This document shows positions 47,934 to 59,730 of a stretch of 64,000 nucleotides of DNA, one piece after another. The notes beneath the pieces are model-generated. The model was given only the letters and a program-made list of their open reading frames with translations. It was not told where the DNA came from and did not search any database. Source of the stretch: Chloroflexi bacterium HGW-Chloroflexi-3 (GTDB lineage Bacteria > Chloroflexota > Anaerolineae > Anaerolineales > Anaerolineaceae). The position numbers and the translations under genes are program-made. The stretch spans positions 6,267 to 70,266 of the forward strand of contig PHBX01000010.1 of assembly GCA_002842045.1 (NCBI GenBank), written 5' to 3'. The first letter of the stretch is position 1. Every line of letters begins with the position of its first letter.

Positions 47934-47961
47934 TTGAATTCGTCTGCTTTTTTGCTATACT
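47934..47961 (+). promoter_or_regulatory. candidate sigma-70-type promoter of the T7SS-like operon
   Basis: TTGAAT (47934-47939), a 16-nt spacer, then TATACT (47956-47961), about 55 nt upstream of the first gene. The AT-rich context raises the chance of a spurious match. Confidence 0.3.
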
Positions 47962-47985
47962 ATTAAATATTATTGACCGAATTAT

Positions 47986-48000
47986 TCAATTATTAATTGA
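47986..48000. promoter_or_regulatory. 7-1-7 palindrome between candidate promoter and RBS
   Basis: TCAATTA-T-TAATTGA immediately upstream of AGGAGG (48005-48010). It could be an operator, or a chance match in AT-rich DNA. Confidence 0.2.
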
Positions 48001-48015
48001 TAATAGGAGGGACGA

Positions 48016-50349
48016 TTGAATGCAATGCTGAAAAAAGCTTTGCCGTACCTGCTTATTGGTGTTTTGTTTTTTTCCATCATCATTGAGGCATTTGCCCAAT
48101 CACAACCAGATGTGCGAATTAATACCGTTTCCACCATAGAATTGCCAGATTCTGTCAATTTAAAGGTTTATTTTAATTTATTTGACAAACAAACTGGTCA
48201 GGCAATTACCGATATCACCCCGGAAACTGCTCAAATCACATTGTTGAATACCGGTTTGACAACCGGAGGGGTGATCAAGCAACCGGATATTCCCATTTAT
48301 ATCACCATGGTACTGGATGCAAGCGGGAGTATGTCCGGTGCGCAGGCGCAACTCAAAGATGCAGCCAAACTGGCATTAACCAACGTACCCAATGATGCCT
48401 TTTTCTCGGTGGTTCAATTTGATGAAGAAATCGTACTTTTGCAGGATTTCACCGAGAATCAATCTGCCATCAGCTTCGCTATTGATCAGTTGAAGGTGAC
48501 GGGAAGAGGAACCTGCCTTTATGATGCTGCTTATACCGCAGTGGAAGCCATGGAGAAAGCGCCAGTTGGCAGGCGTGCGGTGATTCTCTTTACCGATGGG
48601 AAAGATGAAACCAAAGAAGGAAAAGTGTGCAGCCAGCATACTTACCGGGAACTGGTTGATAAAGCCATGAAAGCCCAGGTTCCGATCCACACGATTGGAT
48701 TATCTGTTTCAGCAGGAAACATCAACGCGGTTGAGTTGGAAAATATGGCTGCCAGCACCGGTGGATTTTCGGCTATCGGAAACGAAAGCCAGCTGAAGAA
48801 TTCCTTTGAGCAAATTATGCTCGGGTTGAAAGCCCAATGGATGGTGGAATCCAGTGTCTATCCCAGGCAGGGTGATAATAACGCTGTTTTAACCATGAAT
48901 TTGAAAGATGCAGGAGAAACTAGCACAGCATTTATCGTCACATCCAGTAAAGAATACCCGGGTCCCCCTAGCCCAGTGTCGGCTAAGCTGGATGGGTTTG
49001 CTTTACGTCCCGAAACAATGACTTATGATGTACAGATCTCGCTTACCTCGCCGGAGATGGTTAATTATTTGCGCGTAGCCATTTGGGAAAAAGAAGGTGG
49101 ATCCAAAATAACCGAATTTATCTTTGAAAACCTGGCAAGTTTCAACACACTCAATATCCCAACCAATGCATTGACCGCCGGTCGTGATTACGAAATGAGG
49201 ATCGTCGCTACCGATAAAGAAAATAATTTCCCCTTTGCGATCGTGAAGGACGATCAGGGGAAAGCATTCACCGAATTAATTCACGAATTCAAATTTGATC
49301 CATCCGGTGTTTTGCCAAAGTTGAGTATTCAATCGGTGATTCAGGACAACAACGATCTGGTGATTCAAATAGCCACCACCAACCCGCTCCTGGTGAAAGG
49401 ATATGATGGGTGGCTAATTGATGAAGAAACCAACACGGTTGTTCCCAATTCAACCTTCAGCAGTGATGTGCTTCCGAATGGCAGTGGTTCGATCACCATT
49501 CCGATGGTGGAAGCAAAAGTTCCATCAGGAAAATACACCATTCTGGTGAGGGCTCTGGGGGAAGGAACCAGTGTATTTGCGTCCCAGCAATACAATGGGG
49601 TGGTGTACCAGACCAAGAAAGTATCGATATTTGAGCGGGTTTTTTCAGCCTTAAGAGCATCACCAATTTTCTTCTACATCATTCTTGGAATTATTCTGGT
49701 CGTAATAGCCTTCCTGATGATCTATAACTGGAGAGAGAAATCTCTCTCTGGAACGCCGGTCATGCAGGGTCGATTAGGTGGCCAAATGAAAGCCAAACGA
49801 GGGATAAAAGAACCTTCCCCGTTTGCGGATCACGAACCCATTCCTGGAGCTTCGGTGGCACGACCAGTCCAACCTTCTCCAGTAAAAATACCTGGACCGC
49901 AAGCTTATGATTTACCCGTGATGCCTACACCGGTAGCAAAACCAACACCGGCAAGTGTACCACCCGATCAGCTGGATCAAACAATCGTCGGGGCACCCCC
50001 TATGGGAGATGCGACGCTGGTTTCACCCGCCATCAAATTGCCCTCGTTATCTGTGGTAAACGCACCACCAGGCGTATTATCACCTGGGCAAAAAATCAGT
50101 GTGCAGCAATTACCGTTTACGATCGGACGAGTAGGTGCCATGTTGACCGTTAGCGAGGCCAGTGTTTCCCGCTTGCATGCTCAAATTTCAATGGATCCTC
50201 AAACCAAGCGATTCATGATTACGGATATGAATAGCAGTAATGGAACCCGGGTAAATGGAACTCCATTGACCCCTGGCCAATCGTCGTTCTTAAATCATGG
50301 CAGTCGTATTCAAATTGGACCCAATGTAGAAATCGTTTTTGAAAATTAA
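48016..50349 (+). CDS. bitopic vWA - Ig-like region - TM - Pro-rich linker - FHA protein
   Basis: 777 aa. Start is TTG 48016 or ATG 48025, after AGGAGG. Signal/TM N-terminus and a vWA domain with MIDAS DASGSMSG (about 48316-48337). A beta-rich middle and a TM segment (IFFYIILGIILVVIAFLMIY) follow. The C-terminal FHA reads FTIGRV..VSRLHAQI..SSNGTRVNG. Confidence 0.8.
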   Translation: MNAMLKKALPYLLIGVLFFSIIIEAFAQSQPDVRINTVSTIELPDSVNLKVYFNLFDKQTGQAITDITPETAQITLLNTGLTTGGVIKQPDIPIYITMVLDASGSMSGAQAQLKDAAKLALTNVPNDAFFSVVQFDEEIVLLQDFTENQSAISFAIDQLKVTGRGTCLYDAAYTAVEAMEKAPVGRRAVILFTDGKDETKEGKVCSQHTYRELVDKAMKAQVPIHTIGLSVSAGNINAVELENMAASTGGFSAIGNESQLKNSFEQIMLGLKAQWMVESSVYPRQGDNNAVLTMNLKDAGETSTAFIVTSSKEYPGPPSPVSAKLDGFALRPETMTYDVQISLTSPEMVNYLRVAIWEKEGGSKITEFIFENLASFNTLNIPTNALTAGRDYEMRIVATDKENNFPFAIVKDDQGKAFTELIHEFKFDPSGVLPKLSIQSVIQDNNDLVIQIATTNPLLVKGYDGWLIDEETNTVVPNSTFSSDVLPNGSGSITIPMVEAKVPSGKYTILVRALGEGTSVFASQQYNGVVYQTKKVSIFERVFSALRASPIFFYIILGIILVVIAFLMIYNWREKSLSGTPVMQGRLGGQMKAKRGIKEPSPFADHEPIPGASVARPVQPSPVKIPGPQAYDLPVMPTPVAKPTPASVPPDQLDQTIVGAPPMGDATLVSPAIKLPSLSVVNAPPGVLSPGQKISVQQLPFTIGRVGAMLTVSEASVSRLHAQISMDPQTKRFMITDMNSSNGTRVNGTPLTPGQSSFLNHGSRIQIGPNVEIVFEN

Positions 50350-50367
50350 TAGATTGGAAAGTGAAAT

Positions 50368-58600: not shown

Positions 58601-58603
58601 GGT

Positions 58604-59620
58604 ATGGACGATTATATTGATGTCAAAATAAATGTTTTTGAACATACCGGGCAACGTGCTCGGGTGCGGCGATCGATCACCGTAAAAACCTTGATTGATG
58701 AGATCCTGAAGGAATTTGATGATATTGATGCAGATTCCCCGGAAAAATACAGCATTCAATTGAAAGGAGTGGATAGACCACTGGAAGCTAACCACACGTT
58801 GGCACAACTGGATATTCAACCCCAGGATGAAATTACAGTAGGCTATTTGCACCAAACCATCCGGAAAATGCTGGATCCCAAAGACCATGCTACCCTGCGC
58901 GAAGAAACTTCCAATATCACTTTTGATATCCAATGGACACCTGCCATCATCGGCCGGCCCAGCACAGAAGTCAACCACAACATCATGCTGGCTGTCAACA
59001 TGCAAATTCTGGCAATTGGTATGACCATCTCACGCAAGCATGCACAGATTGTATTTTCAGAAGGTTCTTTCTTTATTGAGCCAGCTGCAGCCAATAATCC
59101 GACTTACTTGAATGGGAAATTGTTAGCGGTTAACACCATGAACAAACTCAAAAGTGGTGATCGTCTGGCATTTGGACAGCATAAAGTCAGTTTCGTCTTC
59201 ACTACCAAATCACAACCCGTTTCGTATGGCATGGATCCCTCTGAGCCAATCAGTAAACCGGTAGCTGTTCCAGCAGAGAATTTTCACACCCGAGTCGCAC
59301 CATCAAAAACCGGGATGGCAACACTGGTGATCGAGAAATCATTGAACCTGTCCAATATAGGGCAACGAATTCCACTCCAGAATTTACCTCTGGTAGTTGG
59401 GCGTGTCATTCCACTATTCTCAAGTGAAGGCGATATCTCCAGGCAACACGCAGAGATCAATTTTGACCCTGTATCAAATATGTATACCATAAAGGATCTG
59501 AATAGCACCAATGGTGTCACGCTCAATGGGCAGAGAATTGAGGCGCAAAAGGTTTATGAATTACATCCTGGTACAAAAATTGGTCTTGGAAAAGTAATGG
59601 TTGTAGAGTTCCAAACATAA
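58604..59620 (+). CDS. ubiquitin-like (YukD/EsaB-like) domain fused to two FHA domains
   Basis: 338 aa, starting 3 nt after essC. The N-terminal ~80 aa have a beta-grasp-like pattern (IDVKINVF..VKTLIDEILKEF..YSIQLKG..TLAQLDIQPQDEITV). FHA1: IIGRPS..ISRKHAQI..YLNG. FHA2: VVGRV..ISRQHAEI..STNGVTLNG. Confidence 0.65.
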   Translation: MDDYIDVKINVFEHTGQRARVRRSITVKTLIDEILKEFDDIDADSPEKYSIQLKGVDRPLEANHTLAQLDIQPQDEITVGYLHQTIRKMLDPKDHATLREETSNITFDIQWTPAIIGRPSTEVNHNIMLAVNMQILAIGMTISRKHAQIVFSEGSFFIEPAAANNPTYLNGKLLAVNTMNKLKSGDRLAFGQHKVSFVFTTKSQPVSYGMDPSEPISKPVAVPAENFHTRVAPSKTGMATLVIEKSLNLSNIGQRIPLQNLPLVVGRVIPLFSSEGDISRQHAEINFDPVSNMYTIKDLNSTNGVTLNGQRIEAQKVYELHPGTKIGLGKVMVVEFQT

Positions 59621-59650
59621 GCATAAATTTTTCAATAAGCTTAGAAAAAA

Positions 59651-59685
59651 ACCGGTTCTGAGAGTTATTTTCAACTCAGAACCGG
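59651..59685. terminator. bidirectional intrinsic terminator between the T7SS-like operon and katG
   Basis: CCGGTTCTGAG / CTCAGAACCGG 11-bp stem (within 59651-59685), flanked by an A-run upstream and a T-rich run downstream. It lies between convergent genes. Confidence 0.6.
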
Positions 59686-59730
59686 AAATTTTTAATTAAT
59701 TGTCACCCTATTTCAGGTGAAATCCATTCA

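Follow-up and report, generated by a model that had tools for sequence, protein, structure and literature searches.

A probable type VII secretion locus typical of Anaerolineae, with T7SSb-like modules in a different partition

A DNA stretch of 64,000 nt (the window) from the metagenome-assembled genome (MAG) Chloroflexi bacterium HGW-Chloroflexi-3, an uncultured member of the Anaerolineae, contains a cassette of nine open reading frames (ORFs), g1 to g9, all on the plus strand at 48016-59620. We interpreted this cassette as a type VII secretion system (T7SS, ESX/Ess-type) of a subtype typical of Anaerolineae and Chloroflexota, in which T7SSb-like modules would be repartitioned among the proteins. 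We put the probability of this reading, including the mechanism proposed below, at about 0.75.

The predicted products were an EssC/EccC-family ATPase (g8), five WXG100-type proteins (g2 to g6), a pseudokinase (g7), a YukD-like protein with two FHA domains (g9), and a protein with VWA and FHA domains on either side of a transmembrane (TM) helix (g1). The product of g9 was 100% identical to a "hypothetical protein" of the MAG. The initial annotation, made from the letters of the window, had listed nine co-oriented genes with gaps of 18, 149, 31, 16, 28, 101, 18 and 3 nt in order from g1 to g9. The ORF positions and the eight gaps were reproduced exactly, and each of its domain calls was borne out by profile searches against Pfam and NCBIfam.

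The ATPase, the WXG100 proteins and the conserved gene order

The g8 product (1526 aa) contained two TM helices (36-54 and 63-81), the first of which was preceded by 35 residues that included the EccC-type motif RPPRIEPELPSG..IP.PPD (RPPR..PP type). Walker A motifs were found at 546, 915 and 1207. The Walker B motif read DE in D1, and DN in D2 and D3. By these motifs, D1 is of the active type, and D2 and D3 are degenerate. No Pfam match to an FHA domain was found on g8; the FHA domains were carried by g9 and g1 instead.

A conserved helical module of ~45 aa (g8 residues ~1450-1505, window 58370-58540) followed D3 in all orthologues, with the pattern S.YD...K.KL...G.....LS..D..E.A..LGL. We know of no counterpart of this module in EssC or EccC.

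The NCBIfam models for EssC, EccCa and EccCb scored 733, 459 and 347.8 bits on g8 (cut-offs 778, 509 and 346.55), and the last of these passed. On the other hand, the models for the DNA pumps FtsK and TraB scored 73 and 27 bits. The closest solved relatives in the PDB were EccC of Thermomonospora curvata (4nh0; 303 bits, E 2.4e-89), YukB of Bacillus subtilis (216 bits) and EccC5 (190 bits), and FtsK scored 55 bits. These scores pointed to a membrane ATPase of the EccC/EssC family and not to a DNA translocase, in agreement with the triple ATPase with two TM helices described in the initial annotation.

The alternative, a DNA translocase identity for g8 (of FtsK, TraB or conjugation type) with no relation to the small helical proteins beside it, can draw on the sole strong Pfam family, FtsK_SpoIIIE, which covers DNA pumps too, but is made very improbable by the model and PDB scores, the three tandem P-loop domains, the degenerate Walker B motifs of D2 and D3, the RPPR..PP motif before TM helix 1, and the linkage of WXG100 genes to the g8 orthologue in every relative. 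A single-motor FtsK or TraB identity was rejected on the three motor domains, the WXG100 context and the model scores.

For a tree of D1 by neighbour joining, the D1 blocks of ten reference ATPases were taken from an alignment that Garrett et al. 2024 (PMC11217815) give in their supplement. The tree is a rough result, because the transcribed reference sequences carry optical character recognition (OCR) errors. The refuting outcome named in the initial annotation, a grouping of the ATPase with DNA translocases, was not borne out. The Chloroflexota ATPases (the window, L009, L022 and L024) formed a clade of their own, and at this rough level g8 appeared to lie outside all eight described TsxC clades. 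With EssC and the ATPases TscC to TsjC, g8 shared 44-49% identity in D1 (47.5% with Staphylococcus aureus EssC and 48% with the T7SSc and T7SSh ATPases), and with EccC in the alignment used, 29%.

The g3 to g6 products were 98-110 aa in length. The Pfam WXG100 cut-off was passed by g3 and g4, and g5 and g6 stayed below it; the cut-off of NCBIfam TIGR03930 was passed by g3 and by the N-terminal domain of g2 (45.5 bits, cut-off 44.85). Profile-profile comparison with hhalign linked the five proteins at high probability (the g2 N-terminal domain to g3, 100%; g4 to g6, 97.6%; g3 to g5, 96.3%; g3 to g4, 95.3%). The W-x-G motif was present in g2, g3 and g5, and g6 was degenerate at that position.

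These matches, with profile-profile links of 95-100%, upheld the WXG100 nature that had been assigned to g2 and to the four proteins of ~100 aa. They placed g2 to g6 in the WXG100 superfamily, in two classes alternating along the DNA, as expected for the predicted g3-g4 and g5-g6 heterodimers. An EssC/EccC-type triple ATPase beside WXG100 genes, the T7SS signature named in the initial annotation, was confirmed.

The repeats of g2 were conserved with variable copy number, and its weakly hydrophobic C-terminus was conserved among orthologues. The C-terminal YxxGD..SGSxRF of g6 was likewise conserved in its orthologues, and most orthologues of g2 and g3 contained IYRxAE. A secretion motif of ESX substrates is YxxxD/E, which IYRxAE fits.

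A scan of a genome collection with g8 produced 19 loci (L001-L019), all in MAGs of Anaerolineae/Chloroflexota, with ATPases 69-97% identical to g8. Gene order was judged only where the flank was long enough. In every such relative, in more than 10 genomes, all nine genes were found in identical order. A further metagenomic relative also kept the nine-gene order, and its downstream neighbours were unrelated. The recurrence in more than 10 genomes ruled out a chance origin of the grouping.

In the window, the cassette was flanked by housekeeping genes: upstream, those of a UPF0029 protein and a GNAT protein, and downstream, katG, a fur-family gene and a ferredoxin gene. The katG-fur pair had no counterpart in several relatives. 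We took g1-g9 as a conserved unit because these neighbours differ between relatives; the compact gene set of the initial annotation was confirmed in this respect, with the same order across relatives and varying flanks.

At the downstream boundary, katG and the fur-family (PerR-like) gene occupied window 59731-62452 (-), between g9 and the ferredoxin gene, and the same arrangement was found in L002, L003, L010 and L011. In L013 the pair was present after g9, and the contig stopped ahead of the ferredoxin position. The pair was missing from L001, L004, L005 and L015; there the ferredoxin gene lay ~1 kb after g9 in L004 and within ~70 bases of it in the other three. The boundary of the cassette is polymorphic for this insertion or deletion. 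In two long-read MAGs (L012 and L018), the g1 and g8 orthologues were split into shorter ORFs, probably by assembly frameshifts rather than as true pseudogenes.

The pseudokinase, YukD-like and VWA proteins, and the non-coding elements

The catalytic motifs of g7 were read from an alignment to CaMKII and PknB. HLCLNPDV replaced HRDLKPxN in all 16 aligned sequences (the window and 15 relatives), one Leu/Ile change aside. DFG had become DLG, and the Gly-rich loop (GxGxxG) was missing. Three residues were retained, namely the Asp of DLG, the Lys of beta3 and the Glu of alphaC. [quoted passage not shown]

The N-terminus of g7 formed a conserved zinc ribbon (CxxC-x10-C-x4-C), the Cys ligands of which were invariant in the alignment of 16 sequences and in a further one of 26 sequences. 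At the other end, only 2-4 residues followed the TM helix (333-351), which was also a conserved trait. We interpreted g7 as a probable catalytically dead Hanks-type kinase anchored by its C-terminal TM helix. Its identification as an active Hanks-type Ser/Thr kinase was rejected on the replacement of HRD and the missing Gly-rich loop.

On the basis of the fold class, the dead active site, the single TM helix and the gene context, we propose g7 as the counterpart of EssB/YukC. Homology to EssB is claimed no further than the kinase fold, because Foldseek returned active kinases and not EssB/YukC.

We read the g9 product as a fusion of a ubiquitin-like domain with a pair of FHA domains. In its AF2 model (pLDDT 78), an N-terminal beta-beta-alpha-beta-beta unit preceded two FHA sandwiches that a disordered linker connects. 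FHA domains (among them the phosphothreonine-binding DgcB, GarA, OdhI and EmbR) dominated the Foldseek matches of the whole model, with a few ubiquitin chains lower down, and no YukD or EsaB entry was among the 50 matches listed. Designed helical-repeat proteins, the sole returns of a PDB profile search with the ubiquitin-like domain, were dismissed as spurious. A ubiquitin-like YukD/EsaB/EccD-N module is nearly universal in T7SSs. PF08817 was precomputed on several g9 orthologues, and a YukD-FHA relative (P0272) reached 28.6 bits, above the cut-off. In the FHA domains of g9, GR, SRxH and (S/T)xN were invariant in 30 sequences, down to 52% identity.

With g9 as query, an exhaustive search at E <= 1e-3 returned 2786 relatives. 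Of the 150 best representatives, 78 were 190-260 aa long and 23 were 300-400 aa, the full three-domain size. The listed relatives of 190-260 aa typically aligned to g9 residues 1-200, which comprise the ubiquitin-like domain and the first FHA domain. In a Pfam scan of ten shorter relatives, FHA was found in all ten and YukD in six, in one of them above the cut-off. GR and SRxH were retained in 74 of the 78 YukD-FHA representatives and in all 23 of the YukD-FHA-FHA type. Four YukD-FHA clusters named a taxon below "bacterium", all four of them Anaerolineae or Chloroflexota; most clusters were unnamed.

Two further Chloroflexota loci, L022 and L024, contained a g7-like gene followed by the gene of an FHA-less ATPase of 1500-1596 aa and then a YukD-FHA gene. 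Like g7, their kinase-like proteins had a zinc ribbon, DLG and a TM helix at the C-terminus, and HRD was replaced by HLN. The triad of pseudokinase, FHA-less ATPase and YukD-FHA protein is a conserved Chloroflexota core. Specific to the nine-gene cassette are g1, the second FHA domain of g9 and the fixed set of five WXG genes.

Immediately downstream of the triad in L022 lay the genes of two long WXG100-fused proteins. These genes (L022 8843-12144) encoded proteins of 319 and 458 aa with N-terminal WXG100 domains, and a 150-aa gene came after each; one of these two was DcrB-like. The pairs look like polymorphic toxin and immunity pairs.

The g1 product matched VWA_2 (E 8.5e-15), VWA and FHA (E 1.2e-14) in Pfam, and TIGR03436 in NCBIfam at 87.5 bits, above the cut-off. 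It had a single TM helix (551-569) and the metal ion-dependent adhesion site (MIDAS) motif DASGS. Both DASGS and the motif REKSL(S/T)GTPV(M/L)QGRLG, located just inside the membrane, were invariant in the orthologues. The FHA domain of g1 likewise kept the phosphothreonine-binding residues GR, SRxH and N. From this composition, g1 is predicted to link a VWA domain outside the cell with an FHA domain in the cytoplasm.

The initial annotation had seen none of the other canonical membrane components. For EsaA/YueB, EssA/YueC, EccB, EccD, EccE and MycP this stood: neither the nine products nor the rest of the window gave a Pfam or NCBIfam match, and TM prediction found no polytopic membrane protein encoded in the cassette. 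It did not stand in full, since g7 appears EssB-like and g9 YukD-like.

Of the two elements said to bound the genes, both were present as sequences, a promoter-like one upstream and a terminator-like hairpin downstream. Both hexamers of the promoter were largely retained in six close relatives. However, promoter-like matches in the region numbered 38, versus 30.5 +/- 5.9 in shuffles, which is no excess, and neither were the counts of the promoter and terminator consensus scan as a whole above those of shuffles. The sequence at 47934-47961 remains a candidate promoter because consensus matches were no commoner than in shuffles. The conserved block ATAACTTTATACA farther upstream may be an operator, or a second or alternative promoter (-10/-35) element.

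The terminator-like hairpin (59652-59685) had an 11-bp stem with an A-run upstream and a T-run downstream to 59693, and folded at ~-27 kcal/mol with its flanks. It lay between the convergent genes g9 and katG. The consensus scan overlooked it because its loop is 12 nt.

A strong hairpin was predicted in the g6-g7 spacer in almost every relative compared, with a stem sequence that was wholly different between lineages. In L007, L008, L009 and L014 this spacer was lengthened to 400-530 nt. Conservation of the structure and not of the sequence pointed to a structural RNA or DNA role; the hairpin is likely an attenuator, a partial terminator or an RNA-stabilising stem. Most simply, it would favour the substrate genes, either by terminating part of the transcription or by stabilising transcripts. 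A tRNA and Rfam scan of the window gave no match within the locus.

Table 1. Predicted features of the locus, in window coordinates
Feature	Position	Strand	Content	Basis
Conserved upstream block	47907..47919	+	ATAACTTTATACA, upstream of the candidate promoter	unchanged in the upstream regions aligned from six relatives
Candidate promoter	47934..47961	+	sigma-70-type: TTGAAT, 16-nt spacer, TGcTATACT	consensus scan
g1	48016..50349	+	signal peptide, extracellular VWA (MIDAS intact), beta-rich ectodomain, TM helix, cytoplasmic Pro-rich linker, FHA	Pfam, NCBIfam
g2	50368..51375	+	N-terminal WXG100 domain, Gly-rich TDFGAGQFG repeats, low-complexity stretch, Gly/Ala-rich hydrophobic C-terminus with basic tail	TIGR03930, alignment
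g3	51525..51827	+	WXG100 protein with W-x-G motif	Pfam WXG100 41.8 bits, TIGR03930 55.7 bits
g4	51859..52155	+	WXG100 partner-type, LVG replacing WXG	Pfam WXG100 37.9 bits, hhalign
g5	52172..52504	+	divergent WXG100 protein, motif WKG	TIGR03930 E 1.4e-7 (under cut-off), hhalign
g6	52533..52832	+	divergent WXG100 partner-type, C-terminal YxxGD..SGSxRF	weak Pfam WXG100, DUF6507 and EspC matches; hhalign
Hairpin in g6-g7 spacer	52862..52898	+	perfect 16-bp stem, between substrate and machinery genes	consensus scan
g7	52934..54001	+	zinc-ribbon, tail-anchored pseudokinase	Pfam Pkinase E 3.8e-14, alignment, AF2 model
g8	54020..58600	+	EssC/EccC-family ATPase: two TM helices, domain of unknown function (DUF), D1-D3, no FHA, extra C-terminal helical module	NCBIfam, PDB match, motifs
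g9	58604..59620	+	YukD/EsaB-like ubiquitin-fold domain and two FHA domains	Pfam FHA E 2.5e-27, YukD E 2.1e-5, AF2 model
Terminator-like hairpin	59652..59693	.	bidirectional (CCGGTTCTGAG / CTCAGAACCGG)	read from the sequence and folded

Elsewhere in the window, a gene of a Hanks-type Ser/Thr kinase (575 aa, Pkinase E 1e-56) was followed by ORFs of 425 and 374 aa with no Pfam match (together 21736-26093, +). This kinase (21736-23463) was the closest of active type, ~25 kb from the cassette, and had no linkage to the cassette in relatives. Among the relatives compared, only L016 had a kinase gene after g9: it lay directly downstream of the g9 orthologue (L016 4280-5941), encoded 553 aa and matched g7 weakly (28% identity).

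A cobalamin riboswitch (RF00174, 64.6 bits) was found at 45217-45356 (-), upstream of a minus-strand operon at 40077-45069 that encoded a squalene-hopene-cyclase-repeat protein, an energy-coupling factor (ECF) S-component, CbiQ and a double ATP-binding cassette (ABC) ATPase. The operon probably encodes a B12-regulated ECF transporter, and the listed ORF at 45045-45320 (-), which overlaps the riboswitch, is probably spurious. A cluster resembling a polyunsaturated-fatty-acid or polyketide synthase occupied 10333-20983. It contained a minus-strand multidomain synthase of 2739 aa (ketosynthase, acyl carrier protein, acyltransferase, ketoreductase and dehydratase), a 4'-phosphopantetheinyl transferase gene at 11994-12731 (-) and the gene of a PfaD-like NMO/FabD-insert protein at 10333-11976 (+).

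Proposed assembly and alternative readings

In the cryo-EM study of 2025, the T7SSb core unit consists of the pseudokinase, two FHA domains, YukD and the DUF domain of the ATPase in mutual contact (PMC12637312). In the Bacillus system, the ATPase holds YukD between its own FHA domains and its DUF domain; the tip of FHA2 is the binding site of a YukC pseudokinase dimer, and both the recruitment of YukC and function require YukD (PMC12637312). The simplest reading of the domain content and gene linkage of the cassette is that it encodes the same assembly with its domains partitioned differently.

In such an assembly, the four modules of the core would come together, and the YukD-like g9 would provide the FHA domains in trans. 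The ubiquitin-like domain of g9 would dock on the DUF domain of g8, and one of its FHA domains on the g7 pseudokinase, which would sit in the membrane beside the TM helices of g8. Hexamers of the g7-g8-g9 unit would form a channel and export WXG100 dimers. The g2 product, a putative surface or fibril-like protein, would also be exported, and substrates encoded elsewhere could use the same route.

The g1 product, unrelated in sequence to EsaA/YueB, would replace it as the component with a large ectodomain, and its FHA domain would connect the assembly in the cytoplasm with something outside the cell, be it a ligand or the wall. More speculatively, the conserved hairpin after g6 would keep the substrate transcripts more abundant than those of the machinery.

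Several observations weigh against this reading. Matches of g7 to Pfam YukC (E <= 0.1) or NCBIfam EssB (E <= 0.01) were absent, the structures closest to its model were active kinases such as PknB and not EssB/YukC, and it lacks the extracellular domain that EssB has. The YukD match of g9 (25.6 bits) fell just under the Pfam cut-off of 27, and the profile search of PDB sequences with its ubiquitin-like domain did not recover YukD. The D1 tree that places g8 uses OCR-derived reference sequences, and the cassette contained no toxin or immunity pair.

A second reading takes g1, g7 and g9 as a threonine-phosphorylation signalling pathway and not as parts of the channel. The pathway of this kind in type VI secretion comprises the kinase PpkA, which has a periplasmic VWA domain, Fha1 and PppA. 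By analogy, the VWA domain of g1 would sense an extracellular cue, a kinase with its gene elsewhere would phosphorylate a target, and the FHA proteins would license a minimal channel made of the ATPase only.

The retention of GR, SRxH and N in all three FHA domains favours such a pathway, as the FHA domains of T7SSb EssC have lost their phosphothreonine-binding residues (PMC11217815). So do the extracellular VWA domain with its intact MIDAS, the invariant Thr-containing juxtamembrane motif of g1, and the kinase genes mentioned above: the genuine Hanks kinase (21736-23463) in the genome and the putative kinase gene adjoining the cassette in L016. On the other hand, no active kinase or PPM phosphatase was conserved with the cassette, the conserved kinase-like gene was catalytically dead in every orthologue, and the ubiquitin-like domain, FHA domains and pseudokinase are structural in the one solved homologous system (PMC12637312). 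We consider the pathway a tentative alternative, on the doubtful side. It and the structural core are not mutually exclusive.

Another possible, though again rather unlikely, reading concerns the physiological role. The system would export only its own WXG100 proteins and g2, and so build or remodel the surface, sheath or filament contacts of filamentous hosts, like developmental ESX-type systems and not as a means of toxin delivery. The same five WXG-type genes were always present, and LXG, RHS and toxin-immunity pairs were absent from the cassette, which lies among housekeeping genes. The copy-variable Gly-rich repeats of g2 and its hydrophobic, basic C-terminus also suggest surface anchoring. 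However, the toxin substrates of T7SSs are often encoded elsewhere in the genome, and the related locus L022 carries WXG100-fused proteins resembling toxin and immunity pairs.

Retained FHA residues in a cassette with no active kinase or phosphatase also suggested that the repartitioned T7SSb-like assembly may be switched on by a Hanks kinase located elsewhere. Such phospho-dependent gating is speculative. Within the invariant motif of g1, the juxtamembrane SGTPV(M/L) is a candidate phosphorylation or docking site. In its most elaborate form, the system would be contact-triggered and phosphothreonine-gated: the VWA domain of g1 would sense contact or a cue at the envelope, a Hanks kinase from elsewhere in the genome would mark SGTPV(M/L) or another site, and the FHA domains of g9 and g1 would read the mark and lock g7 and g8 in an active state, as a repartitioned T7SSb core. 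We regard this full sequence of events as unlikely.

If the repartitioned T7SS is correct, the locus extends to a third phylum, Chloroflexota, a catalogue of T7SS architectures (a to j) that all come from Bacillota or Actinomycetota. The cassette is well delimited, and its nine genes are kept in many Anaerolineae from the environment. As a Rosetta-stone case, the YukD-FHA fusion lends evolutionary support to the unit of ubiquitin-like protein, FHA domains and pseudokinase seen by cryo-EM in 2025; this core unit may predate the split between the forms with FHA on the ATPase and FHA on YukD. With FHA residues that are kept here and lost in Bacillus and Staphylococcus, the system could reveal whether phospho-regulation was an original feature of T7SS assembly. 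Secretion for competition or for filament surface biology would matter in sludge, sediments and groundwater, habitats rich in Anaerolineae.

Comparison with known secretion systems

T7SS-type genes in Chloroflexi have been predicted in comparative studies since ~2011-2012. In the literature searched on T7SS and WXG100 in Chloroflexi, Chloroflexota and Anaerolineae, no account of the nine-gene architecture and no experimental work was found. This agreed with the initial annotation, according to which such loci outside Firmicutes and Actinobacteria had been predicted but not characterised. A survey of YukD-like domains from 2006 did not mention the FHA fusion.

The locus lacks the defining features of both T7SSa and T7SSb. 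It departs from T7SSa because EccB, EccD, EccE and MycP are missing, and from T7SSb because there is no EsaA/EssA, no FHA domain on the ATPase and no EssB-family sequence.

The likeness to T7SSa (ESX) lies in the EccC-like, FHA-less ATPase, of which the closest PDB match was T. curvata EccC and which passed the EccCb cut-off, and in the pairing of the WXG100 genes. The ubiquitin-like domain that contacts the ATPase DUF domain lies in EccD in T7SSa. Besides the four Ecc and MycP components, the cassette has no PE/PPE or EspG, and its D1 is only 29% identical to that of EccC in the alignment.

Subtypes c to j, described from Bacillota and Actinomycetota only, include kinases, phosphatases, separate FHA proteins and a VWA protein (PMC11217815). 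The accessory gene set of the cassette differs from that of every one of them (T7SSc-j) as described in the text of PMC11217815. The nearest in organisation are T7SSc and T7SSh, both with an FHA-less ATPase and a kinase-like membrane protein; TshM of T7SSh has, like g7, a single C-terminal TM helix and no ectodomain (PMC11217815). T7SSc also has a VWA protein, which is cytoplasmic, whereas that of the cassette is extracellular (PMC11217815). Unlike g7, TscD of T7SSc keeps its kinase active site. An EspG-like protein occurs in both, as a chaperone in T7SSc, alongside a PPM phosphatase in T7SSc and a free ubiquitin-like protein in T7SSh (PMC11217815). Both are known from Bacillota only, and neither the YukD-FHA fusion nor an extracellular VWA-TM-FHA protein is described for either (PMC11217815).

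The likeness to the PpkA/Fha1 pathway of type VI secretion is an extracytoplasmic VWA domain coupled across the membrane to FHA-linked control of a secretion machine. It differs in that the VWA domain of the cassette is fused to FHA and not to a kinase, the kinase-like protein is predicted to be dead, there is no phosphatase, and the machine is unrelated.

The T7SSb systems (B. subtilis YukE/D/C/B-YueB/C and S. aureus EsxA-EsaA-EssA-EsaB-EssB-EssC) have several traits in common with the cassette: WXG100 substrates, a pseudokinase anchored in the membrane, a probable ubiquitin-like module of the YukD/EsaB type, FHA domains at two per unit, a monoderm host, and an ATPase in which two TM helices are combined with a DUF domain and three P-loop domains. 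Unlike in T7SSb, it is the YukD-like protein and not the ATPase that carries the FHA domains, and these retain their phosphothreonine-binding residues. The pseudokinase is nearer to Hanks kinases than to EssB/YukC, with an N-terminal zinc ribbon and no ectodomain, and an extracellular VWA-TM-FHA protein is present instead of EsaA/YueB and EssA/YueC.

The initial annotation had supposed a membrane core organised differently from both characterised classes. The comparison supports a different partitioning of the domains but not a wholly different core, as g7 and g9 would supply modules of the T7SSb core unit.

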